This document shows positions 20,055-63,659 of a stretch of DNA of 64,000 bases, piece by piece; the stretch's first letter is position 1; the number at the start of each line of letters is the position of its first letter. The notes below the pieces were generated by a model, which saw only the letters and a program-made list of their open reading frames with translations, did no database searches and had not been told where the DNA came from. The stretch is from contig OX597822.1 of assembly GCA_951406725.2 (NCBI GenBank), positions 12,586,001-12,650,000 of the forward strand, given 5' to 3'. The DNA comes from Octopus vulgaris (lineage: Eukaryota). The position numbers and the translations under genes were made by a program.

Positions 20055-21087
20055 TCTTCTAAGTCTCAGTCTACGAACTGCGGCCATACTGCAGCACTAC
20101 TGTTTACTTTGCTACACTTTCACTAAACCTCCTCTGATATATGACATTTGGTAAATAAGAGAGTTTGATGTTGCTGTCCTCATCTGTATCTTTTGCCTAG
20201 AGGTAGGTTCATCCGGAATTCTTGACATTCGTTAATAAATATAGCAGAATACACGGGTCCAGAGAAAACTTTTCAATCCTTTAGGAAGTTAACATGGATA
20301 GCTGATGGTGCACCATAGAGTTTAACGGTAGAGTCTGTCAGCTTTGTCAGAAGAAACCAACATGGTTTCCATTCCTCTTGTTCTGAACGTTCGATGGGTT
20401 CACCTGGTCAGACGTCTGTATTTTATTGCCAACTTAGTAATGTGCACCTGAAAAATGCATCATTCCTCGTGTCAATGCCCAGGTCATGCCCTGACCTTGA
20501 TTCAGAGATTGGGATCCATCCTGGTCCAGTGTATCCTATCTGCTTTTTATTGAGCTTCATGTGTTGGTAGCGCAGGCCTTGGAATTTTCCAGCATTAAAC
20601 TGCATGTTGTTGTTCTCCCATCTGTATATAAGTCCAACTCCCGTTGCAGAGGCACAACGTCTCCGGTGTTCTGTATCCTCTGGAAGACTTTTGCATCGTC
20701 TGCATAGCTAGCAATGATAGATACTTGAGCAGCTGAGGGCATGTCAGAGAGGGACACTATAGCAGTGGCCCGAGAGTAGTGCTCTGTCGAACACCACTCA
20801 TTATTTGTGTTTTCTTGGAGGTGGCCCCATTACCTCCACTGCCTAACTTCTGTCTAAATGATGTAGCCATTCTCCAAATTTTCCAAATATGACACGATTT
20901 CGGACCTTGTGATTTATGAAACCATAGTCGACATTTTCTAAAGGATTTTCCAAAGTCGAGGTATATCACGTCTACTTTTGAGTTGTTGAGCAGCTGCTTT
21001 AGCACCCTGTCCTAATGCTGCAATAGCTGTGTCAGGCAGTTTCTACCTGGTCGAAAAACATGCTGGGTGTCAGTCGTTCCATGACTT
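20055..21087 (-). mobile_element. Decayed CR1-group LINE RT fragment
   Basis: ORFs give VDVIYLDFGK, SGVRQSTTLGPLL, SYADDAKV and MQFNAGKFQ. 3' tail at ~20060-20100. Confidence 0.85.
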
Positions 21088-26687: not shown

Positions 26688-26732
<45 letters not shown>

Positions 26733-26895
26733 GTTATCGCCATATTAATATGGCATTCTTATAGACATAAGAATAATCGCTGCCGCTGGTCAGCTCCATG
26801 AGGCCACCGCCTTAAGATAGCTATTGATACACGATCTGTATCCATTATAACCTTCGAACAATGGAGGTCAGCCGCTTCACACTGCCAGTCCGACA

Positions 26896-26937
26896 GCTAC
26901 AGACGCGTTTCGGGGTATTGCCCCTTTTCAATGTAGC
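26896..26937 (-). ncRNA. Type-I hammerhead, U3-A8 core, GUC cleavage triplet
   Basis: gctaca-TTGAAAA-gggg caata cccc-GAAA-cgcg-TC-tgtagc. Confidence 0.8.
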
Positions 26938-27259
26938 GCAGTCAGACCCCGCAGGTGTCGCCACTGACGTCTCTGTTCGAAGGTTTCTATTTACCTAGCT
27001 TCAGTGGAATACATCCACTTGTTTTCAATAATAGAAGTATTAAAATTACTAAGTCTCTATAAAAGAGATTACGGCAGCGTTTACTGGAAATTAATTGTTA
27101 TCGCCATATTAATATGGCATTCTTATAGACATAAGAATAATCGCTGCCGCTGGTCAGCTCCATGAAGCCACCGCCTTAAGATAGCTATTGATACACGATC
27201 TGTATCCATTATAACCTTCGAACAAGGGAGGTCAGCCGCTTCACACTGCCAGTCCGACA

Positions 27260-27301
27260 GCTACAGACGCGTTTCGGGGTATTGCCCCTTGTCAATGTAG
27301 C
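27260..27301 (-). ncRNA. Type-I hammerhead, U3-A8 core (second tandem copy)
   Basis: gctaca-TTGACAA-gggg caata cccc-GAAA-cgcg-TC-tgtagc. Differs from the first copy only at the free N7 position. Confidence 0.8.
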
Positions 27302-27834
27302 GGGGTCTAATATATATATATATTTCTTTCTCTCTTCTTCCTCTCCGCCACCTCCTTCCTAACTTTACTACTATTGCTGTTTAGAATAACACCTACGCAA
27401 TATTTATAATACATTCAAAAGAGATGTCTCAAGAATGCAATCACTACTACCATGCACAAGTCATTTTCAGGGCACTTGACCATTTAACATTCTATGACTA
27501 TCATGGGACTCCCGCATTCTCCTCCGCAGCATCCGTCTCCTCCGCCTCCTCCTCCTCCTCCTCCCCCTCTGCTTTCTTCTTCCCTGCCAAGAATTCGCAT
27601 CTACCTCGAACCCACAAGAGTAAACGAGAGAAATAGACGGTTAGAAACAAGACAAAAGGCCCCTTATATTTGAATAGTATGCAAATATTCTAAAATCTCT
27701 TCTTACAGTTGAAAAATTCTCAATGATTCAAACCGGTACTGAAATGTTTTTTATAAAATTATTTTAGCATTTTCTACCTTGATTTTTTTCCATATACATA
27801 CATACATACATACATACATACATACATACATACA

Positions 27835-28204: not shown

Positions 28205-28288
28205 TTTTCGACATATGTTTCGAAGTCTGCAAAATCCCTAATTCCGAATGAATAAGGAATCCATTATGCAGCTTTCTCTTCAGGAAAA
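28205..28288 (-). ncRNA. Type-I hammerhead in the PLE pseudo-LTR
   Basis: ttttc-CTGAAGA-gaaagctgca...tgcagacttc-GAAA-catatg-TC-gaaaa. The + copy starting at 29871 is split by a SINE. Confidence 0.8.
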
Positions 28289-28844
28289 TCCAGGAACTTC
28301 TTTCGCCAACAAAATGCACAACAAGTTTTTAGATGACTGCTCACGAGGAGCCCATAGCGATAATGATAAATAATGTCTATTTATAGGGGGTGACGTCAGA
28401 TTGGTTGAAAGTAGGAGAAACTGGCAGTTAAAATAGTTCAAGGGTTCAATCGAGGTTGGAGAAGGAAGGTAAAAGAATATTAAGGTGAGGGAATGTATTC
28501 TGTATGACTGGTGTTTATATTTGATTTATTTTATGAATGAGTGCTCGTATGTATGAGTGTGTATATTTTCCTTAATGTGTGTGTGTGTGTCTGTGAATGC
28601 GTGATTGTGTGTGTAGAAGGCAGACAGAAAATTAACGGTCAGGAGGTGAAAGGACTGTGTCTGTGTGTTCGAATGTGTCGCCCACAATAGTAATGACAAG
28701 AGACAAGGGTACTACTGGAATTGGTTGTAGTTCTTAGCAATTATGTGAAAGTCTTATAAACAAAAGGGATGAGATATCACAAATTAATTTTGTAGGAAAT
28801 CCAGGGTTTATCTATATTAGACTTCATAGGTATGAGTGAAAGGT

Positions 28845-29746
28845 ATGCTTTTTCCAGTGTAAGCATCTGAAAGATCTCTCGACAATCTAGTTTACTACTT
28901 GGCCTCGGGCCAACAGAATATGAAAAAGTTCGGAATTACAGAGGGCACAGATTTTTCTGCCCTTATCAAACGGTAAGGACACCGACAATATTGACCATTC
29001 CAGCGTAAAAGTTGAATTTGCGTTCTTCAAACGCCAGACTTATTTGCTTAGCCCTGTGGTGTGCTGTTTACTCTTATCTCGGAACGTAGAAAAATGGTTT
29101 GAGACCCTCGTGGCTAATTTAGAGGAGGTTGCGCCAATATAGAGGTAGACATCGGATCCAGTAGAAATTTTGCACTGGTAAGTGGTGTTTCTAATTTTGG
29201 AGTTATTTGATAAGAACCTTAATCTATTGGGATTAGTTTCCGATACTAATACAACGATCTTATTTCTATGATGGGTGTAAAAATTACTGCTGGATTTGGG
29301 CATGATACTATTCATCCTATTTTCATTACTATTTAAGGCAATATCACCTGCACATTCCCTGTTTCTGGGAATGCTGTGATTGTTATTGTCCGTAAAACTA
29401 CTGTTGTTAAGAACGCTACTACTATTATTGTTGAGACCCCCTCCGTTAATGTCCTGGCCGGTGCTCTTATCCTTATTATTATTGCTAACGCCAATGCTGG
29501 TATGAAGGCTGCTAATATCTGTGCTATTTCTATTATTATTATTATTACTATATGTTACGTTGGAATTTGACAGGGCGGTGTCTCTGCTCATGGGTGATGA
29601 GACCTTATTTAGCAGCTTATTGTTATGGGAGGCAATTATCTGTGAGAGATTTTTAGTATTTGAGAAAGCAATCCTTACTTTGCGCGAATTTATAGTGGAG
29701 TAATATCTTGAATTTCTGGGAAAATTCCTGGCAATGTCTTGGCGAA
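28845..29746 (-). pseudogene. Penelope GIY-YIG endonuclease / ORF C-terminus remnant
   Basis: FPRNSRYYSTINSRKVRIAFSNTKNLSQIIASHNNKLL, an Asn/Ser-rich linker, TTYQCKI...YLYIGATS...RVSNH...TGLSK*VW, then WSIL...KICALCNSE...CLH. Contains in-frame stops. Confidence 0.85.
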
Positions 29747-29945
29747 ACTTTCAACCAATCTGACGTCACCCCCTATAAATAGACATTATTTATCATTATC
29801 GCTATGGGCTCCTCGTGAGCAGTCATCTAAAAACTTGTTGTGCATTTTGTTGGCGAAAGAAGTTCCTGGATTTTCCTGAAGAGAAAGCTGCATAATGGAC
29901 TCCTTATTCATTCGGAATTAGGGATTTTGCAGACTTCGAAACATA

Positions 29946-30335
29946 TACTCTTTACTCTTACTCTTTTACTTGTTTCAGTCATTTGACTGTGGCCATGCTG
30001 GAGCACCGCCTTTAGTCGAGCAAATCGACCCCGGGACTTATTCTTTGTAAGCCCAGTACTTATTCTATTGGTCTCTTTTGCCGAACCGCTAAGTGACAGG
30101 GACGTAAACACACCAGCATCGGTTGTCAAGCAATGCTAGGGGGACAAACCTAGACACACAAACACATACACACACATATATATACATATACATGACAGGC
30201 TTCTTTCAGTTTCCGTCTACCAAAATCCACTCACAAGGCATTGGTCGGCCCGAGGCTATAGCAGAAGACACTTGCGCAAGATGTCACACAGTGGGACTGA
30301 ACCCGGAACCATGTGGTTGGTAAGTAAGCTGCGCC
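29946..30335 (-). mobile_element. SINE family A inserted in the PLE hammerhead stem III
   Basis: Flanks ca-tat|...|tat-gtc versus intact catatgtc in the other arm. The head has a short internal deletion. Confidence 0.85.
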
Positions 30336-31192: not shown

Positions 31193-31756
31193 GTTCTTCT
31201 ACTTCTACTTCTACTTCACCTTCTTTTCTTCTTCTTACCTCCTTCGTCTCTTTCAGTAGTTCTCAATTATTTCTTTTTATCTATGGACCCCTTTGATTTC
31301 TATTGTATTCTGGTAGACTTCCATAGCCTTTCAATATTTACAAACTAATTTTATAGATATTTCTTTCAAAATTCCCATTTTGTTTTTCACATTTTAACTT
31401 GTGTAGGTACATCTAAGTAAAACGTCAGAGAAAAAACGGAGATGCTTCTTGAAATAAATATATCCAAAGTAAACTATTTTAAATAGATCCTTAATATACC
31501 TCTGAGGGTCATCGTTTTATTATTTTGCTTTTGTGGACCCTAACAGATCCCACATAGACCACGGCTGAGAAGCAGTGTCGACTCAATTTTGTCCATTTGC
31601 TTTCTTCTTGGTCTCTTTATTTGTCTTGTCCCTCTCTCCTCTCTCATTATCATCAGAATTCTGAAACCGTTAACCTATTGTGTGCTGTAGACACCAACTT
31701 TAATTATAGAAGTGTTTAGGCGCAGGAGTGGTTTTGTGGTAAGTAGCTTGCTTACC

Positions 31757-32780
31757 TCGCTTATGCATACGTCAGTTTCTCAGCCATTTAAGAGAGTGAA
31801 CAGTCAAAACGTGCTTTAAAGCCGTCTTGAATTAAAGAACCGTTGATGGCGCGACTGCTACGTAAGCATCTGTCTTTTAGGGATTCGGTGGGGAATTATT
31901 TTTTTGATATTGTTATTTTCTCGAATAAGAAATCCACACTGAGTCCTAGACAACTGTCTGCTGCAGTCGCGCCAAGTGACTGACTTAGCTGTGAGATTTG
32001 TTGCTTTTGGTGGGCGTGTCTCGATACCAAAATTTGGAAAATTTATGAAATCATGGATGAATTTTTGTTTACTGCGACGGTGAACCTCTATTCTTGCAGA
32101 TTACCTGAGTGGCGGAATTGTGTTGCCGTGAATTGAACTGTCTTCGTTCTTTTTCTAAGCTGTGCAGAAAAAACACTATAAGGGCATACCTTTAACTTTC
32201 ACACGGGAAACTGAATGCCCACGGCAGATAGCTGTGGAGACCATAACGTTGCCAGTGATGCGTAGGCTGCAGGGACTCAAAGAGGATTATCGCTTGTGGC
32301 CGGGTAACGCCGATTCGGAGCCCGCATTGGTTTTAAACGAGACGTGGGTGATCGCGGAGTATGCGGGCACAAGCGATGTTGGGGAGGAAAATTGGCAAGA
32401 GGCTGAAAAGCCTCAGTGTTAAAATGTTTAAGTGTGTAAGAAGCTCAGCGCATCAATTTGTAAATGGATATTAAGTCCAAAATTTGAAAAAAAACGGAAG
32501 CAAATGGTTTAATACCTCATTTTGTTTTTTCTGTAAAAAATGATGTTTTAATTTGTAAATGGACTATTAAGTCCAATAATTGTAAAACGGAAGTAAGAGG
32601 TTCAATACCTCGGTTTGTTCTTTGTGTAAAAAGTGTTTTAGAGAAGCAAAAAATCGGCGGGCGGTTTTTGGCTTCTCCCATCAATGTCATTTAACTACAT
32701 CATTCATCTCATCAATGTTTCTGTCCAGCCGGCAAGCTACTCTGTATCATACCTTTATGGCAAATTTTTTTGAAATAAAG
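31757..32780 (+). mobile_element. RT-less retroelement copy 1 (shorter, decayed ORF)
   Basis: 5' gtcagtt; ORF remnant FTRETECPRQIAVETITLPVMRRLQGLKEDYRLWPG; 3' tgtccagccggcaagctactct...ggcaaattt..tgaAATAAA. Homologous to copy 2. Confidence 0.65.
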
Positions 32781-32790
32781 TAATTGCTTA

Positions 32791-34350
32791 TTCCCGACGC
32801 ATGCGCCGTCAGTTGTCGGCTACTGCTACTGTGAACGTCACGTCGCTTTAAGTTGCGTGAAGAAGAGAAATAAAAGAGACTGGCTACAGGTAAGACTTTT
32901 TGTTTTATTTTTAGTTCGGTGGGGATTTATTGCTGTGTTATTTTTAATAAATACCTGCTGAACTCTAAACAATTTTGTCTGTCAGTGGTGAGTCTAGTTG
33001 TACTCAATTTTAGTGAGTTAAAATTTTTTTGGTGGGCGTATCTCGCCACCCAAACATTGTTTCTGTACCTGGTCTGCTGAAATTCCTACCTTGGAGTACC
33101 TGGTTTGTTGTAGTTCCTGCTTCGGAGAACCTGGTTTTGCTGTTGCTACCAAGTTCCAATTTGGACCAGGAATACCTTTGACCGGAAGAGTGTGTTCGTA
33201 GTATCTTTTTGTTTTGTTTTTCTTGAACTGTTTTCTCTTCTGTTTACTTCAAAGACTTTTTTTAACTATCTCTGAAAATTGTCCGTTTGTTTTTGTATTC
33301 TAACATGACGGACAACAAGAACAACAGGTAAAGCACTGCTTTGGAGTGGGAGATTATCCAACCCAAAGAGTTGCTTAAACAGCAAGAGGAGAAGACGGTG
33401 GTGTTGAGAACGTACTCGAAAGTTCTCGAGGCCATAGCCGTCTTCTCCAAGCAGGAAATTGAAAAGGAGTTAACAGACTATCCGCCAACTGTGAAGTTTA
33501 TTACCCGGGGTATCGGATATGCAACGATTTGGTTGCTACTTGACATGCCGGTGGAAGCTCGTACTTTTTGCGAGCCAGCCCCAGGAGGGCAATAAGATAT
33601 TATTTCTTCCCACGTATTTGGGAGGAAATTGATGAAGGCTTAGCTCTGCGGGCTGCCACTCAATATAGAACCAGGGTGGATAGCGGACACTATCCTCTGG
33701 GGTCTGGGTGGCAGCAACACCAATCTCCTCAGTGTAAAGCTATTACCGGTGACTGATTGGGTCTTCGACCCGGATCTTCGTCGCTGGAAATTGTGCCACC
33801 GACGGTGGAAGTGACTACCCCACCACTTAAAGGAGAAGAATTACTTATCTTCTTCTACAGGAGCGAGTGTTGGAGAAGGTGGTGGAGAAGCACCAAGAGG
33901 GATTAGTTCTGGCCTACACACGGGATCCCGAGTGGCCTCCAGAAATAGCTGTGGAGGTCATAAAGGCGCCCGTGGTGCAAAGGCTGAAGGAACTCAGAGA
34001 GGAGTATCGCTTATGGCCGGGTGGCACCGGTACGACACAAGCTTTATACTTGAGTGAGGCGTGGGAAATGGCAGGGTACGGGATCAGAAGCGATACTGAA
34101 TTTGAAGAAGATGTTGTAGAAAAGGACTACGCGTATGAGGTAGGAAAGCCTCGTCATTGTAAAACGATAAGAGGTTTTAAACCCCAATCTGCTTATTCTA
34201 AAAAAGAACATCGTTTTGGGGAGACGGCGGTTGGCGGGCGCCGTTCGTTTCTCTCATTAATATGTTTATATTGATTTCATCCCATTAATGTAATTGTCCA
34301 GCCCGGAGTCACTCTATGCCATGCCCCTGTGGCAAATTGTATGAAATAAA
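32791..34350 (+). mobile_element. RT-less retroelement copy 2 (ORF1-like remnant; possibly an L1/Tx1-derived non-autonomous element)
   Basis: 5' gtcagtt; broken ORF from ~33305 (WEIIQPKELLKQQEEKTVVLRTYSK...; YTRDPEWPPEIAVEVIKAPVVQRLKELREEYRLWPG); same 3' end with AATAAA. No RT or endonuclease motifs. Confidence 0.65.
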
Positions 34351-34488
34351 GTAGCTTGCTTCCCAACCACGTGGTTCCGGGTTCAGTCTCACTGTGCGTC
34401 AGCTTGGGCAAGTGTCTTCTACTATAGCCTCGGATCGACCAAAGCCTCATGAGTGGATTAGGTAGCCGGAAACTGAAATGAATCCGTC

Positions 34489-34552
<64 letters not shown>

Positions 34553-34884
34553 ATGTGTGTATGTGTGTATGCGTATATGTTTGTGTGTCCTTGTTTGTTC
34601 CCCACACAACATCTCTTGACAACCGATGATGGTGTGCTTACATTCCCCTAACTTAGCGGTTCGGCAAAAGACACCGATAGAATAAGTAGTAGGCTTACAA
34701 ACAATAAGTCATACGGTCAATTTGCTCGACTAAAGGCGGTGCTCCAGCATGGCCGCATTCGAATAAGTGAAACAAGTAAAAGAATAAAAGAATTAAAGAA
34801 TTTGCTCATTTACTCTATCATTAAAATCCATTCATAAACTAGAGTTCCTTGCTCTTTCTACCATAACGAACACTATTTACTACA

Positions 34885-39884: not shown

Positions 39885-40386
39885 TTCTTCTCTCTCTGTG
39901 TTATATCATTTTCATATATTTTTGTCGTTCTTTCGCCTTGCATCAATATTTTATTTTTTTATATGTAAAATGTTGTAGATGTGGAAATGTGTCATTATTC
40001 GGAAATATTGTATTTCATATTAAATGATATTTTCTGTTATTTTTAAAATGGGAAACATTCTAATTTAATAAAGAATTTATATTAGTTAGAGATGGAGGAA
40101 AGTCTTCCCCCATTGTACTGTCAATCTTTATGTGTATACATACGCATATATATACGTGTGTGTATACAATTTTATTTACATAAATACATATACTTCTGTG
40201 TGTATGTGTAAGTGTGTGTATATAATTCAATTCGTCTTTCTACTTGGTTCTTACAAACCCTTAGCTATAACGTAACAATGGAAGTTATGCAATCTGGCGC
40301 CATGCAACTCTGTGTTCTTGGATAAATTTTGGAATGTGCTATTCTGTATACTTACCATCCACTGAAATAAAACCCCAATAATAAAA

Positions 40387-40390
<4 letters not shown>
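39885..40390 (+). repeat. ~500 bp repeat with a high-identity inverted copy at 46788-47287
   Basis: ttcttctctctctgtgttatatc...ccactgaaataaaaccc..taataaaagta and its reverse complement. Both end in (TA)n. Confidence 0.85.
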
Positions 40391-40462
<72 letters not shown>

Positions 40463-41511: not shown

Positions 41512-41647
41512 GTTTGCGGTAAGAAGCTTGCTTCCCAATCACATGGTTCCGGATTCATTCCCACTGTGTCGCAACTACTACTACATCCTCCGGCCGACCA
41601 AATCCTTGTGAGTGGATTTCATAGACGGAAACTGAAAGTAGCCCGTC

Positions 41648-42319: not shown

Positions 42320-43240
42320 CTGGGTTATTGCTATTCGTAGTAGCCCTCTGATCATGCCTTCAGCTGCTCAGGCAGCCATCCTTGCTAGGTACGCAGATGA
42401 TACAACAGTCTCTCAGAAGATATGGAACCCAGGTGATGATGTGCACCTGTGACAGGGGTTGGACTCAATATACCGGAGGGCTGAGGGCAATAACATGCAG
42501 TTTAATGCTAGAAAATTTCAAGCCCTGCCTTGCCAATGCACGAAGCAGGATGAAATGCAGATAGGATTCAGTGACCTAGGAGGGATTGCAAAATCAGAAG
42601 GTGTTAACCTGCGTAATGATGCATATTTTCAGGTGCATATTACCAAGTTGGCAATAAAATTCAGACCTGGACCGGATAAAGATTTAGACCTTTCAGAACA
42701 AGAGAAGAGAGAACAATAATGTTCCTTTGGGGGACATTTATCCCCAGCTGTTTAGATTACTGTCAGCTACTGAGAGAGATTGAAAAAGTTAAGTCTCTAC
42801 TCTCTACAACGAAGGTAGAAAAGATGTGCAGTGATATTCATCCGCAAAATTCCAGAAAAACCTCTGCCAAACATTGACATTGAAAGTTACACAAACAGCA
42901 GAGTACCTAAAATTCTCAATGTCATCAAGACTCAGGATCAGATACTGCAACAGCTTGGATTTCAAAGGCCCAGAGCTTTGCAATATCCTCGCAAAAAGCT
43001 TGAGGCACCTACATGGGATGGATGTAGGCGTCTTCAAACCAAAACTAGATCTTCTGTCGAGTTCAAGATGAACATTCCACGTCGCAAAAAACGCAGATAA
43101 AAGCAGCACCATCGAAATCCTTCATTCACCAAATGCCAAATATAAGAGGAGGTTTCATAGAATGAACATCTAGCAAAGTTAATGGCAGTGTACCAGCATG
43201 GCCACGGCTCTCGTGCTGAAGACAGTAAAGAAAATATACA
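42320..43240 (+). mobile_element. Decayed CR1-group LINE 3' fragment
   Basis: YADD-encoding tacgcagatgat, NNMQFNARKFQAL and YCNSLDFKGPELCNIL. Tail gcagtgtaccagcatggccacggctc. Confidence 0.85.
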
Positions 43241-43471: not shown

Positions 43472-46433
43472 TCAGGATTTGGGCCCCAAGGCCCATTCGA
43501 GCAGAGAGTTATTGTTTGCGGAGACATATCCGGGTGTGGGTGGTTTGTCCCAGACTGTTTGAAGGAATTTGTCCAAAGACTTCTTGAATTTTGTGTGGTC
43601 AGTTTCTTTTTTGACGTGTCCTGGTGTAATGTTGAAGAGAGCGGGTCCAACTGAGGTGAAATAGTTGTGCCGTATTGTCGTTATGTGATGCGATTTAGAT
43701 TTTTGTTGTGGACGGATGGAACGTGGTCCAAGCCTTGGATGTATTTTGAAGGTGATGCCAACATCATTCGGACAGTGCTGATGGAATATTTTCCACATCT
43801 TACAGATAATGTAGCGTTCACGGCGTCGTTGGAGTGAATACAGTTTCAGCTTCTCTAGTCTACCCCAGTAGTCAAGGTCTGACATGCCATCTATCTTTTT
43901 TGTGATTGACCTTTGGGGAGCTTCAATTCTCATAATATTTTGTTTTGTGTAGGGAGACCACAGTGGACAGCAGTATTCAAGGTGGGGTCGGGCAAAAGTG
44001 GAGAAGAGAAGGATAATAGTGTGGGAATCTCTCGACTGGAAGGTTCTGAGAATCCAGGAACACGTTCTGCGGGCCATGTCAACTTTGCTGCTTATATGTG
44101 TAGCCCAGCTTATGTTGTTGTCCACTGTTACTCCCAAGTCTCTGATGCTGTTGGATGCCATGAGAATTTCTCCAGAAGGAAGAGAGTATGGGAGTTTCAG
44201 AGCGTCCTCCCTTCCAAAGTGGATCAGTTCGAATTTGTCTTCATTTAGCAACATGTTATTCTTTTCCGCCCATTGGACAACAGCCAGTAGGTCTGACTGG
44301 AGGCTTATTCGGTCATCCACGCCATTGATGACCTTCTGGAGCTTGGAATCATCAGCGAAGGTTCTGATGTTACTGTGTTTGATGGTGTCAGTAATATCAT
44401 TTATGTAGATGATGAAGAGAAGTGGGCCCAACACAGTGCCTTGTGGGACACCACTGCTGACTTTGGCTGGGCTGGATTTGATTCCTTCGACTACAAAATG
44501 TTGGGTTCTGTTAGACAGGAAGCACTTGAACCACTGCAGCAGCTTTCCAGTGACACCAATATTGGACAGTTTCTCAGAAGGATCTTATGATCAACCCTGT
44601 CAAAGGCCTTGCTGAAATCAAGGTAGATGACATCAGTGTTGGAACCCTCTCCCAAGGCTCTCAAAATGTCATCAAAATGATGCAGTAGCTGCGTCAGGCA
44701 ATCTCTCCCATTACGGAATCCATGCTGGTTGGGGTTCAGCATATTATGACTCTCAAGGAAGTGAGTCATACGCGATCTCAGTACTCTCTCAAATACCTTA
44801 ATGATATGAGAGGTGAGTGAGATTAGACGGTAATTCACGGCAAGCGATTTGTTTCCTTTTTTGAAAACTGGGACAACAGACTGGGATAGAAGGTCTTCTG
44901 GTATATATCCAGCATCCAGTGAGTTCCGCCACAGATTGGCTAGAGGGGGTGCAAGTTGGTTTTGACACATCTTCAAGACACAAGCAAGGAACCTATCGGG
45001 ACCTACTGCTGAATTATGCTTCATTTCCTTTATTGCTGCTAAGACATCAGGAGCGTCAAAGGTTATGTCTGATAAAGTGTATTGGGGAGTAACATCACTG
45101 ATACAGCCCAGATCAGTCATATCAGGATTGCTGAAAACAGAGCAATATTGTTTCTGCAATATCTCTCCCATGGTTTTGGCATTGTCTTGAAGAGTACTAT
45201 TTTCATCAATCAGAGGGCCAACAGTAGAACCAGTGACTCTGTGTTTTTTTGCAAATGAAAAGAACACTTTGGGATTGAGTTTGATCTTCTCAATGGCCCA
45301 GGCCTCTTCAGCTCTTCGCTGACTATTGATGATAGACATCATGTTGTTTTGGAGTTTATGTTTTTTAATCTCTAGCGACGAGATGGCAGTCAGGTTGGTG
45401 TGTTGCTGTTGACAGTATTTCAGCTTGTTGATTTTTTTGTTAATTCTTTTAATTTTCCTGAGGAGAGATTTTCTATTTCTAGGGATTCGACACTTAGATT
45501 TGTTTGCAGATCTTAATGGGGTGTGTCTTGCACATATGTTCGTAATGGTGTCTACAAGTGACTGCCAGGACTTTTTGATGTTAGTGGGTGTGTATGTGTG
45601 CGTGAAGGACCAATCGACTTGTGCAAGATCATTATTGATCGCTTCCCAGTTTGCATTGTGGAAATCCATAGTGTCAAATGGATGAACAGGAGGGATGACA
45701 TTTGTTTTGCATTTTGGCCAGTGAAATCTCAGATCACAGAGAACCATGTCATGATCGGAGAGTAGGGTTTTCTCCACTGCAATATTGTGGATAGTATCAG
45801 TGTGATTGCTGAAAATTAAGTCTAAGACGTTTTTATGACATCTCGTTGGTTCGACTACCAGTTGGGACAGGAAGAAATCATCCATGAAGTCAAGAAGCGA
45901 TTCCACTGCCTCCCTGTCAGGGGTTGAGAGAGAAGAACTTGGCGGCAGACTGTTTGTAGACCAGTCAACCCCGGGAAGGTTGAAGTCTCCCATCATTAAA
46001 ATGTTGTCAGGTTGACACTGCTGAATGAAACACTTTATGCTGTTGAGGCATTCCTTGAAGCATGGTAGGGGCGTTTGGGGTGGTCTGTAAAGCCCAACTA
46101 CTGTTAAGTTGTTGGTTTGACTGAATACAGCGACTGCTTCGCAGTATCCATTGCAAAATATGTTCATGGCTTCTGTTGAGAATGAATCATGAACATAAAT
46201 GGCAGTCCCACCCTTTCTTCTGCCAGTACGATCAGCACGAATGGTTTTGAAATTTTGAAGAAAGGGATGTGGTTTGGATGGGCCTCGACCCAGTTCTCCA
46301 GGTATCTTATCTTCCATTTTTGTGTATTGGTGGAAGGGTTGATGCCTTGGGCATTAAGTAGAAATGTTGAGGCGAGAGTGGATGGTTTTAATTGTTTTGG
46401 TGATTTGTTTATTTGATTGCTTTTTAATGGCAT
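43472..46433 (-). pseudogene. LINE ORF2: APE endonuclease plus reverse transcriptase (two frame breaks, at ~46260 and ~44575)
   Basis: APE motifs LLNAQG, RADR..RKGGTAIYV, GLYRPP, MGDFNLP, LDLIFSN and SDHD. RT motifs NYRLISLTS, QHGFR, DFSKAFD, GVPQGTVLGPLLF and FADD; also LYSLQRRRER. The APE ETW region appears deleted. Confidence 0.92.
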
Positions 46434-46700: not shown

Positions 46701-47437
46701 CAGGCAATCCCTGTGCATATATATATATATGCATATATGTATGTATGCATATATATATGTATGCATATATATATATATACATATATATACTTTTATTAGT
46801 AGGGTTTTATTTCAGTGGATGGTAAGTATACAGAATAGCACATTCCAAAATTTATCCAAGAACACCGAGTTGCATGGCGCCAGATTGCATAACGTCCATT
46901 GCTACGTTATAGCTAAGGGTTTGTAAGAACCAAGTAGAAAGACGAATTGAATTATATACACACACTTACACATACACACAGAAGTATATGTATTTATGTA
47001 AATAAAATTGTATACACACACGTATATATATGCGTATGTATACACATTAAGATTGACAGTACAATGGGGAAGACTTTCCTCCATCTCTAACTAATATAAA
47101 TTCTTTATTAAATTAGAATGTTTCCCATTTTAAAAATAACAGGAAATATCATGTAATATGAAATACAATATTCCCAAAAAATGACACATTTCCACATCTA
47201 CAACATTTTACATATAAAAAAATTAATATTGATGCAAGGCGAAAGAACGAAAAAATATGAAAATGATATAACACAGAGAGAGAAGAACATGTATATATAC
47301 ATGTAGATGTCGGTACGTACATATATGTTTGTATGTATGCATATATTTTATTTATTACACTATTGTCTGACAGCACTTCGCGTCGTGGTTCGTTCGAATT
47401 TTCGCTTCGTTCCGTCTCTTTTTTCCTCCCAGTCTTG

Positions 47438-51313: not shown

Positions 51314-52918
51314 GTTTCAGCTCAGAGCTGCGGCCATGCTGTGCACCGCCGTTTTGTGCTACACTGTTATTGCGACGAACCTCGTCTGTTATGTGGCACT
51401 TGGTGAAGAATGGAGTTTGATACAGCTACTCTCATTTGCACCTCTTGCCGTGAGATAGGTTCATCTGGGACTCTTGACAGGAAGATGTCCAGTTTTGATT
51501 TAAAAACCGCTACATCTACTTTGTGCAAGTTCCTCAGACTCTTTGGGAGAATATTAAAAAGCTGTGGGCCCTTGAAACCCAGGCTGTTGCAGAAGCTGGT
51601 CCTGAAGCGTGATGGCATTGCTGGGATCTTTGGCACTATGCAGTGTCGTCCCGTTCTAGCATTGGTGTAGCTTACAATGCCAAAATTTGGCACAATTCCT
51701 TCAAGGATCTTCCAGACATATATTACTGCATACCACTCCCGTCTTCTCTCCAGGGAGTAGAGTCTTAGCTGTTTCAGCCTTTCCCAGTAGCTGAGCTGTT
51801 GCAAAGAGACGATCTTCTTTGTGAATCTTCTCTGGATTGCTTCAAGGTTTGCTGTTAATTTTACACTGGTGGGTGACCATAGCTGTGAACAGTAATCCAG
51901 GCGACTGAGGACGAATGTCCGCCAGAGGACCATCATGGTTTCCTTATCTCTGGTTCTGAATGTTCTTAGAATCCACCCAGCCAGTCGTCTGCACTTTGTC
52001 GCCATCCTGGTAATGTGCACTTGGAAAGAGGTATCATCACTCATGTCGATACCCAGGTCCCTCACAGATTTAGGCTCTGGGATTGAAATTCCCTGTGGAC
52101 CGGTGTATCCTGTAAGTTTAATATTCAGTTTTGGATGCTGGTAGCGCAGGGCCTGGAATTGTTCAGCATTAAACTGCATATTATTATCCTCAGCCCATCT
52201 GTAGATTGAGTCCAACTCCTGCTGCAGGTGTGCAACATCGCTGGGGTTCTGTATTTTCTGCGAGACTTTCGTATCGTCTGCATAGCTGGCCAGAGTGGCT
52301 ATCCGGGCATTTGAGGGCATATCTGAGAGGGCCACTATAAAAAGCAGTGGTCCCAAGACAGTGCCCTGTGGAACACCGCTCACTATTTGTGTGTTCATAG
52401 AGGTGGTTCCATTAACCACTACTGTCTGACTCCTATCTTTCAGGATGTCATGCAACCACACTCCAAGTTTTCCAGCTATGCCGAGGTCACGTAGTTTGTG
52501 GCATATCATACATTGATCCACCTTGTCAAAAGCTTTTGCAAAATCAAGGTAGATTACGTCCACATTTGATTTGTTGAGTAACTGCCTCAACACCCAGTCA
52601 TAATGCTGTAAGAGCTGGGTCAGGCAGCTCCTACCTGGTCGAAAACCATGTTGGGTATTACTCAGCAAGTTATTTTCCTCAAGGAATGCGATTAGTTTCT
52701 TTCTGACTATCCTTTCCATGACTTTGCTGATGTGTGAAGTCAGAGAGTTAGGCCAATAGTTTTTGGCATCTGCTCTACTTCCCCCTTTATGTATTGGGAA
52801 TATTATTCCCTCCTTCAGCTTGCTTGGCAGTTTGCCATTCACAAGAAAGCTCTGGAAGAGAATCTTGAGGGGTTTTGCCAGGGCATGCTTACACGCTTTG
52901 AGGAGGATGGCTGGGAAA
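51295..52918 (-). mobile_element. Young 5'-truncated CR1-group LINE with an A-tail, inserted in (TA)n
   Basis: Uninterrupted RT frame. The 3' tail ggcggtgcacagcatggccgcagctctgagctgaaact is followed by poly(A). Confidence 0.93.
51367..52917 (-). CDS. LINE reverse transcriptase, N-terminally truncated open frame (~516 aa)
   Basis: PIHKGG, QHGFRPGRSCLTQLL, YLDFAKAFD, GVPQGTVLGPLLF, YADD and LYSLERRR. The ORF-track start lies in the TA tract and is not a real start. Confidence 0.85.
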   Translation of the reverse strand, partial: FPAILLKACKHALAKPLKILFQSFLVNGKLPSKLKEGIIFPIHKGGSRADAKNYWPNSLTSHISKVMERIVRKKLIAFLEENNLLSNTQHGFRPGRSCLTQLLQHYDWVLRQLLNKSNVDVIYLDFAKAFDKVDQCMICHKLRDLGIAGKLGVWLHDILKDRSQTVVVNGTTSMNTQIVSGVPQGTVLGPLLFIVALSDMPSNARIATLASYADDTKVSQKIQNPSDVAHLQQELDSIYRWAEDNNMQFNAEQFQALRYQHPKLNIKLTGYTGPQGISIPEPKSVRDLGIDMSDDTSFQVHITRMATKCRRLAGWILRTFRTRDKETMMVLWRTFVLSRLDYCSQLWSPTSVKLTANLEAIQRRFTKKIVSLQQLSYWERLKQLRLYSLERRREWYAVIYVWKILEGIVPNFGIVSYTNARTGRHCIVPKIPAMPSRFRTSFCNSLGFKGPQLFNILPKSLRNLHKVDVAVFKSKLDIFLSRVPDEPISRQEVQMRVAVSNSILHQVPHNRRGSSQ

Positions 52919-53524
52919 TATATATATATATATATATATATCAATATATATATATATATATATATATATCAAGGAATATATATATATATATATATTACTA
53001 TTTCATTTCATTTATTACTATTTCATTATGTATACGTTAATCCTATGTCTGGAAGAAATAGCCAATTGTCACTGACATAGTGTATCCTTTCATTGGCAAT
53101 CTCCGCTATGATTCCATCACCTCCAGCCTTCCTCGCGGATCTCTGCTTGTTTATAATATTCACCGTGAATTTCTGTGAATGATAACTGGTTGTTTGTGAT
53201 AAGATATTTATATGATGTGTACGAATGTCCACTGGCTGTGATGAGAAAATTCGTACGAGATTGTCAGTAAATCTGATGTGATATATTTCGGCATGTAAAG
53301 ACATATATACACGCATTTATATATATATACGTGAGTGTGTGTACATACTTCCATATATTCACACATATACACTCACACACACATACATACATTTGTGAAT
53401 ATGTACATGTGTATATGTATATATGTGTAAATATATATGCATACGTAGATATAGGCAAATAGAATTTTCTTTACACTTATGCACATAATGCATATATGTA
53501 TATATATATGCGTGTATATATGTA

Positions 53525-62558: not shown

Positions 62559-63373
62559 ACGTCGTTATCTTTATGTTTAGAAGAGTTATCGTTACGTTTA
62601 TGTTGAAAAGAGTTCTAAATAAGGGGAGGTAATAAGTGATTTCTTCCAGTGTAAGGGAGATAATCGCTTAAATTCTTTTTTCCTTTCCTTTGGGGTGAAT
62701 TTCTCTGTATAAGTATGTTGGAATGGTTAAGTCTGGGCTTGTACTTTTCAATGAAGAATGTTTCGTTGTTTAGTCTAGTTTGTGTTGATGATCCGATAGC
62801 ACATTCGTAAAATGGAAAGATTAAAAATTGTGGTAGTAGTTGCTTTGCGCATTTCTCAATGTGCTCACTAAAAGGTATTCATTCCCAAAGGAAATTCTCT
62901 AGAGGAGTCTGTTTTTTATATAAATTTTCATCTGTCCTGCCCGCCAAATTTGGTTCTGGTGTTCGCTGAATTTTTCCTCTAGAGAATTTCCTTTGTAGTT
63001 TGATCGTTGATGATCTGTTTCTAGCATACGGCCGACTACCAAGCAGTCCAGCCCTGCCAATATACACATATATTAGAATTTTCTTTGACTTCTCAGATTT
63101 TTTGTATGCTAGACTACTGGTTTTAAATTGATATTAAAATTAATATTAATTTATCTCCCTCATTATTTAAATATTCAAATAAATACGTTCTCTAGTAGTA
63201 AGCACTAACCGCAGTGAATTATTTATTGCATCCCTTCGCTTCAGGAATCTCTTAGCGCGCCAGAACCAAGACATTTGAAATGTTATCCCTAATGTAATCG
63301 GTAAAACTAAGCACGTGTCTGTCTTGGCACAGAAAGCTGGGGTTAGTTTTTTAGTTTGCATTTACACTGACCG

Positions 63374-63450
63374 AATGCACTGATGAAGCCACGGACATTT
63401 GCATTATGTAAGTAATTCTTTTGTTAAAGGCCGAAACCGAGGTATGCATT
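63374..63450 (+). ncRNA. Type-I hammerhead, canonical core
   Basis: aatgca-CTGATGA-agcc...ggcc-GAAA-cc ga gg-TA-tgcatt. Confidence 0.75.
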
Positions 63451-63603
63451 TAAGTCTGTTTTTTATGTAAATTTTCATCTGTCCTGCCCGCCAAATTTGG
63501 TTCTGGTGTTCGCTGAATTTTTCCTCTAGAGAATTTCCTTTGTAGTTTGATCGTTGATGATCTGTTTCTAGCATACGGCCGACTACCTAGCAGTCCAGCC
63601 CTG

Positions 63604-63659
<56 letters not shown>

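Follow-up and report, generated by a model that had tools for sequence, protein, structure and literature searches.

A short interspersed element (SINE) in a 64,000-nucleotide stretch of Octopus vulgaris DNA (contig OX597822.1, positions 12,586,001 to 12,650,000; hereafter the window) is interrupted by 2.6 kb made up of two related inserts, units 1 and 2, which lie head to tail at the same site in the head of the SINE. Copies of a target motif stand before, between and after the inserts, the inserts are homologous to each other in three blocks, and removing them restores a normal SINE; the proposal of an earlier note on this DNA, that two related inserts lacking a reverse transcriptase (RT) occupy one SINE site, is thus borne out. 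We favour, with moderate confidence, the reading that both units are non-autonomous passengers, placed by target-primed reverse transcription through enzymes of target-specific long interspersed elements (LINEs) that would cut at GGT|AAGTAG. The resulting duplication would recreate the site, and a second relative would have entered there.

Two inserts at one site of a host SINE

The window has a GC content of 36% and is animal-type DNA with many microsatellites and retroelements. The host SINE is a short, very abundant, interspersed repeat with a conserved 5' head, and its tail has eight other matches in the window. A- and B-box-like motifs in the head, recognised by eye, suggest that it is derived from a tRNA; ARAGORN predicted no tRNA gene in the head and Rfam returned no tRNA match, with an intact copy also checked. 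The repeat probably resembles the tRNA-derived SINEs of octopuses. A motif of the SINE had no match in the genome contigs or viral contigs searched.

The motif AAGTAGCTTGCTTMCC is present exactly at the two outer target copies (Table 1). When up to two mismatches were allowed, the sole additional match in the window was an uninterrupted SINE copy at 41521, with one mismatch; the count of three compares with a mean of 0.07 in shuffled sequence, and none of 100 shuffles reached three. The degenerate copy between the inserts starts at 32778 and ends at 32790 or 32795. The SINE head (31719-31756) and the tail from 34349 both align to other SINE copies of the window, and the empty-site form, obtained by joining the halves in silico, is 74-86% identical to six of them. 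The earlier note correctly had the SINE resume after unit 2 but ended the feature at 34364; the SINE passes an internal microsatellite and extends to about 34800. It had also given the motif copies before and after the inserts as 16 bp long. The three motif copies are there; the AATAAA at the end of each insert, however, shares two A residues with the start of the motif copy that follows, and the outer copies disagree at a single base, one that varies among SINE copies as well. The duplication is therefore 11-16 bp rather than a fixed 16 bp. No duplication flanks the host SINE itself. Six other copies equally lack one, so this test says nothing about a chimeric host. Positions 31738-31744, at the target site, read G|GTAAGT and so agree with the consensus of a splice donor, which is probably a coincidence.

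Units 1 and 2 are colinear, and each of their three homologous blocks scores above all 300 shuffles: the 5' region (96, shuffle maximum 46), the open reading frame (ORF; 153, maximum 41) and the 3' 200 nt (104, maximum 37). Their identity is 60-73%, and they are therefore too diverged for a recent tandem duplication. The motif TCAGTT, which we take to be initiator-like, is found at matched positions of the alignment (31772 in unit 1, 32809 in unit 2), and AATAAA is at 32774 and 34345, respectively. About 700 nt present in unit 2, between 33133 and ~33840, are missing from unit 1. The longest stop-to-stop frame in the inserts is 147 amino acids, with no Pfam match to an RT, and the longest terminal words are 5-8 nt, with neither long terminal repeats (LTRs) nor terminal inverted repeats. 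Nothing in the units reached the Rfam gathering score, the only match in the element being mir-7 at E 0.1, and when the shared motifs and the ends were folded, z ranged from -0.02 to -1.86, with no convincing structure and no stable 5' fold. Penelope-like elements have pseudo-LTRs with a hammerhead ribozyme core; the units have no CTGAnGA on the forward strand, no terminal direct repeat and no Rfam ribozyme.

Table 1. Features of the interrupted SINE and its two inserts (positions in the window).
Feature	Positions	Strand	Basis
Host SINE head, 5' part, A-box-like region	31719-31740	+	alignment to other SINE copies
Left target-site copy (11-16 bp)	31741-31756	+	exact motif; junction bridged by X1 contig
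Unit 1, short element, ~1.02 kb, AATAAA end, no poly(A) tail	31757-32779	+	repeated in 4/4 runs
TCAGTT, putative initiator-like motif	31772-31777	+	aligned with 32809
Predicted exon 1: ATG and short open stretch to donor, phase fits ORF-B	31846-31861	+	
Predicted unit-1 intron: GTAAG donor, T-rich, shared motifs, pyrimidine tract, AG	31862-32159	+	
ORF-B of unit 1, 87 codons and stop, no internal stop	32160-32422	+	
Two ~88-nt copies, 82% identical (32455-32542, 32550-32635), unit-1 3' untranslated part	32455-32635	+	
Degenerate middle target copy	32778-32795	+	motif comparison
Unit 2, longer element, ~1.55 kb, AATAAA end, no poly(A) tail	32796-34350	+	near-identical and diverged contigs, 4/4 runs
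CAG|GTAAGA donor-like site of unit 2, aligned with unit-1 donor	32887-32895	+	
ORF-A, broken frame of ~185 codons, ATG 33305, unit 2 only	33305-33860	+	3 internal stops in main frame, apparent frame shifts
ORF-B of unit 2, 101 stop-free codons after acceptor-like AG 33859-33860; frame open to 34274	33861-34165	+	
Right target-site copy	34349-34364	+	exact motif
Rest of host SINE: B-box-like motif, body, internal microsatellite, 3' part	34365-34800	+	SINE alignment

Copies in other DNA runs and likely target specificity

Contigs of 4 of 24 DNA runs were compared with the locus at 80% likeness: X1 and X3 (organism A), X5 (organism B) and X7 (organism C). Relative depth is contig depth summed and set against the unique flank bin 31503-31605; it is not a copy number. 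The SINE bases drew most of the contigs (contig depth ~1-18 million in the four runs), and what is said below of junctions, variants and loose ends holds among the matches listed.

Many distinct, diverged contigs match each unit, and both are therefore repeated families. In all four runs the 5' ends have a relative depth of 5-20x and the ORF-B bins of 197-384x; at the 3' ends it is 59-265x for unit 1 and 3-24x for unit 2. The 3'/5' depth ratio of unit 1 is 7.5-21.5 in every run, a pattern that faster divergence of the 5' end would also give. The 3' end of unit 1 is 10-41 times as deep as the 5' end of unit 2, so that unit 2 does not come after most unit-1 ends, which speaks against a fixed composite. 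Together with their divergence, this indicates that they are neither one composite element nor a recent tandem duplication. A contig of run X1 (record 1), possibly the run of the source sample, spans the flank, the SINE head and unit 1 (31542-31846), showing that the left junction is real. An X5 contig of 83% identity follows unit 1 colinearly between 31809 and 32145 and spans the point where ORF-A is missing; the short form is therefore not private to this locus. The match of an X7 contig ends at 32085, and this copy may be of a longer form. Contigs nearly identical to unit 2 occur in all four runs.

Direct evidence for target specificity comes from the locus itself: two families 30-40% apart sit at one base, and both copies in the window (2/2) share the site. 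In three of the four runs (not X3), contigs carrying two to five substitutions at 31764-31791 stop, on their nearer side, within the SINE head or past it, at ~31734 in X1, 31728-31736 in X5 and ~31713 in X7; one of the X5 contigs has a depth of ~190. These contigs may or may not be aligned through the head. Loose contig ends before 34349 read the same SINE head. On the right side, X5 record 24 (34040-34374, 11 differences) reaches 26 letters into the SINE tail, under our bridging rule of 31 letters, at a depth of 193.9 as against 19.8-27.5 for near-identical X5 records. A target preference has been defined as more than 20% of flanks being of one type (PMC4494074; this and the other papers cited are drawn on in excerpt), the site here being AAGTAGCTTGCTT after the 3' ends. 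The earlier claim of independent, sequence-specific insertions thus holds as far as two separate, related, repeated families at one site are concerned; specific insertion at other loci is plausible and, judging from this indirect contig support, likely.

Run X5 also contains a joint from 31752 back to 31717, at a depth of 1022, which represents SINE copies with the head repeated at the insertion site. It could be a SINE-in-SINE insertion at the same site or a tandem duplication of the head.

The shared frame and its splice-like signals

ORF-B is the only frame common to both units. The two copies align without gaps over 219 nt with 46% amino-acid identity and a ratio of nonsynonymous to synonymous substitution rates (dN/dS) of ~0.52, and none of their codon pairs contains a stop, whereas the two remaining forward frames have 8 and 5 such pairs. 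The diverged records listed over ORF-B of unit 2 have gap totals of 3 or 12 in six of six cases, from about three distinct copies. Weighed with its third-position pattern and core dN/dS (below), the signal of selection on ORF-B is moderate. A near-perfect, in-frame tandem duplication of 12 nt (33867-33890) is located at the start of ORF-B in unit 2.

ORF-B had no homologue or domain match in any library searched. A Pfam search of eight frames gave one non-significant match (DUF6633, E 0.25); word-index searches of two protein libraries brought up 473, 228 and 71 candidates, of which not one was accepted; an Atlas search with both ORF-B copies gave no usable match; and none of 84 candidates from viral contigs was retained. 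A profile search with ORF-B of 1.84 billion representatives had a 61-residue tandem-repeat protein (P0001) as its sole match, an artefact of summed weak matches. The one metagenome match among 177 candidates (L001) was rejected; it covers 16 residues on a contig of 58% GC and has no similarity at the DNA level. Matches to sequences of the Protein Data Bank (PDB), the best at E 0.0085 (vinculin) and 0.23, were taken as chance, and AlphaFold models, with predicted local distance difference test scores of 36.4 and 31.3, were unusable. Likenesses of ORF-B to MADF/Myb domains and to the C-terminus of Tx1 ORF2 were considered and found no support in Pfam. ORF-A likewise had no match in Pfam, the protein libraries or PDB sequences; it may resemble the RRM part of a LINE ORF1. 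The label ORF1-only in the earlier note is not supported, the shared frame being without a homologue or domain match and unit 1 holding only an 87-codon frame without ORF-A.

Splice-like signals surround ORF-B. GTAAG lies ~85 nt after TCAGTT in both units (31862 and 32890), at mutually aligned positions. In unit 2 it forms part of the best donor-like site of that unit. The unit-1 donor scores 4 out of 7 in this copy, where another site scores 5; most other copies read AAG|GTAAGC, a better donor. On the acceptor side, the most pyrimidine-rich of the 46 AGs in unit 1 is the one at 32159, which closely follows an in-frame stop and precedes the shared frame by two bases. Of the 96 in unit 2, the AG at 33860, lying 18 nt ahead of the shared block, and the one at 33254, 50 nt before the ATG of ORF-A, share the first place. 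An acceptor-like AG at 32098-32099 was rejected, being absent from most other copies. The predicted splice in unit 1 (ATG 31846) would yield a 92-codon ORF, which 221 of 2000 shuffles equalled, so that it is weak alone; in unit 2 the phase needed is the only stop-free one of the three, but there is no ATG. Other copies have a 4-base insertion in the pyrimidine tract of unit 1, which fits non-coding sequence.

ORF-A is deleted in unit 1 and broken in unit 2 and ORF-B is intact in both, which, taken with the splice-like signals, suggests independent expression of ORF-B through splicing. It may be a separately spliced exon. On a plainer reading, ORF-A and ORF-B once formed one protein, or are the ends of a deleted LINE, and the pyrimidine tract consists of Leu and Phe codons. 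Only tentatively, and at rather long odds when taken as a whole, we extend the splicing interpretation to a superfamily of RT-less mini-elements that use the SINE head as a landing pad and have shed ORF-A. These would carry ORF-B as a spliced, two-exon orphan gene of ~92 amino acids and move as unspliced RNA with the intron in place, with ORF-B aiding RNA packaging or target finding.

Route of insertion and relation to known elements

Both units have the same 5' region, ORF-B and 3' end with AATAAA, a duplicated target and no terminal repeats. In the mechanism we propose, RNA polymerase II would transcribe the element from its own 5' region, and the unspliced RNA would be the template. The endonuclease of the partner would cut GGT|AAGTAG, the terminal A residues of the RNA would pair with the freed T residues, and a staggered second cut would lead to the duplication. 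As the duplication would recreate the site, the SINE would stay open to another member of the family; in the simplest order, unit 2 came first and unit 1 followed at the upstream copy. ORF-B is predicted to be the selected protein part, made from spliced RNA or as the tail of an ORF-A plus ORF-B protein. A partner of the Tx1/L1 type is our best guess, and the units are likely HAL1- or SIDE-like relatives of a target-specific LINE.

Several observations weigh against this mechanism. No poly(A) tail extends beyond AATAAA, which itself overlaps the target, and at least 14 inherited bases stand upstream of the initiator-like motif. The 3'/5' depth ratio of unit 2 is 0.5-0.67 in three of the four runs, with 4.7 in X5. 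None of the contigs listed bridges a second locus by the 31-letter rule, and the high-depth junction contigs also fit a single, segmentally amplified locus. For ORF-B, the excess of changes at third positions is not significant (28/72, p = 0.19), and its most conserved core (111 nt) has a dN/dS of ~0.8. No autonomous partner was found in the window, nor any protein homologue in the libraries searched. Finally, splice-like signals are retained in genomic copies. Human L1 keeps a donor at +98 in its 5' untranslated region for promoter reasons (PMC5860796), so kept splice sites are compatible with an RNA route.

Among the alternatives, a single event has the best standing, although we regard it as unlikely. 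An RT would have switched to a unit-1 RNA after copying unit 2, or would have used as template a read-through transcript from an older tandem pair; the outer motifs would then be the only true duplication and the middle one a passenger of the RNA. The middle motif is indeed more decayed than the outer ones, but the host SINE is old, judging from its identity to other copies, and two to three changes in 16 bp are therefore within neutral decay. Template jumps have been described for R2 (PMC3414825) and 5' extensions for SINEU (PMC4494074), and the X5 contigs at the left and right outer junctions have a similar depth (~190), as an amplified composite would give. Yet the 3' ends of unit 1 far exceed the 5' ends of unit 2, and a read-through target sequence at the junction would itself imply an earlier insertion at the same site. 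The left and middle copies also share an A that is missing from the right copy, as a later insertion of unit 1 predicts.

Slightly less probable again is an absence of true specificity, with pieces of the SINE head or tail amplified along with the inserts, because a head was captured or a segment duplicated, and with most copies at random sites. This locus is the only one seen in full, the great abundance of the SINE makes chance hits common, and target-derived heads have been added to Tx1 and SINEU elements (PMC4494074). Against this stand the two families, 30-40% diverged, at the same base, the target copy between them, and SINE halves that rejoin as a normal SINE.

We consider it improbable that the units are site-specific elements acting at the DNA level, Dada-like or other, each an intron-bearing mini-gene that was kept and never passed through RNA. 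The donor- and acceptor-like sites kept in both families, the missing poly(A) tail and the inherited bases upstream of the initiator-like motif would suit such an element. Dada inserts into genes for tRNA and for small nuclear RNA (snRNA), has introns and includes one non-autonomous member (PMC3706591); its duplications are 6-7 bp (PMC3706591, PMC8869645) and its DDE transposase exceeds 1000 amino acids. The units differ in having a duplication of 11-16 bp, ends exactly at AATAAA and, in unit 1, an excess of 3' ends. Pfam, the profile search and PDB sequences gave no transposase-like match; in particular, no DDE transposase with a C/DxxH motif was detected in the units by Pfam or the profile search.

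LINEs with a restriction-like endonuclease usually have one long ORF, which does not match an ORF-A that is presumably more ORF1-like, and we take the T|AA context of the target to fit an endonuclease of the L1 type. Target-primed reverse transcription by such a LINE (Dong/R4 or NeSL/Hero type), with a tRNA gene as original target mimicked by the SINE head, is accordingly the least probable reading and very improbable, even though tRNA-Pro, -Arg and -Glu genes are targets of NeSL-related families, tandem insertion with duplications of up to 20 bp is known for Utopia (both PMC4640811) and Dong-R4 and Hero, like L1-Tx1, are listed as recently active in O. vulgaris (PMC13282606, table 1).

As passengers of a target-specific LINE, the units are best compared with three known systems. 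Tx1 families have as insertion targets a piggyBac derivative, a Mariner element, LTR elements, U2 genes and microsatellites, to which they also mobilise SINEU; examples are Tx1L in Tx1D, Tx1-Mar and SINEU in Mariner-N4_AMi, and Keno in U2 (PMC4494074). As in this clade, the inserts occupy a set position within a different repeat, a target is shared by several related families and by non-autonomous passengers, and copies can abut. Here, in contrast, the target is a SINE head, the units carry no RT or endonuclease by which to place a clade, and, where Tx1-clade passengers have an snRNA head, they carry protein-coding frames and splice-like signals. HAL1 encodes only ORF1p (PMC5753468) and is, like the units, an RT-less, LINE-sized passenger with a coding frame kept, its own 5' region and an end at a polyadenylation signal. 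Its protein is the ORF1p of L1, whereas no ORF1 homology was detected here, unit 1 has only its 87-codon frame, and insertion is apparently site-bound. SIDEs (of R2 and R2/R1) are short, site-specific, internally deleted, RT-less passengers, with 14-bp duplications in the R1-site class (PMC3414825). They resemble the units in these respects and in template jumps; unlike the units, which have no Rfam match, no stable 5' fold and a conserved frame, they target 28S rRNA genes and have a 5' ribozyme. By analogy, the units would work like a Tx1 passenger or a SIDE; they are at most candidate members of Tx1 or HAL1. The main text of PMC13282606, as excerpted, does not use 'target' or 'nested', and in the literature covered, which was without subscription journals, supplements, Repbase and Dfam, no SINE-targeting RT-less family was found.

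Other retroelements lie nearby. On the reverse strand, 43475-46353 holds an almost complete ORF2 of a LINE, with domains for endonuclease (Exo_endo_phos_2, E 8.7e-14) and RT (RVT_1), split by a single frame shift; it has no similarity to the inserts and was ruled out as their partner. It is enclosed by a 577-nt inverted repeat pair, 95% identical and 6.3 kb apart (39885-40459 and 46716-47287). A second RT-bearing LINE remnant is at 51370-52968 on the reverse strand (RVT_1, E 5.8e-25); related, diverged pieces of it occur at 20356-21068 and 42329-42769. At 29043-29750, also on the reverse strand, a 236-codon frame has no Pfam match at E 0.001 and contains a Y-x-Y-I-G-x-T stretch reminiscent of a Penelope GIY-YIG endonuclease. 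It is flanked by inverted copies of 200 nt with 99.5% identity (28213-28412 and 29747-29946). Recent direct duplications lie within 26728-27302 (211 nt at 98.6%) and 62906-63620 (168 nt at 97.6%).

The known targets of LINEs and their passengers are rRNA, snRNA and tRNA genes, microsatellites and DNA transposons. The site-seeking habit is thus already known; what is likely new is a SINE as landing pad. A SINE present in so many copies would offer harmless targets in almost unlimited supply, with dependence at three levels: LINE, passenger and SINE host. The family would also indicate an endonuclease with a new sequence specificity. If ORF-B is spliced and selected, these elements would be passengers with a small protein of their own and a working intron, unlike HAL1 and SIDEs as described in the excerpts cited, and this putative orphan gene with its predicted splicing most deserves to be followed.

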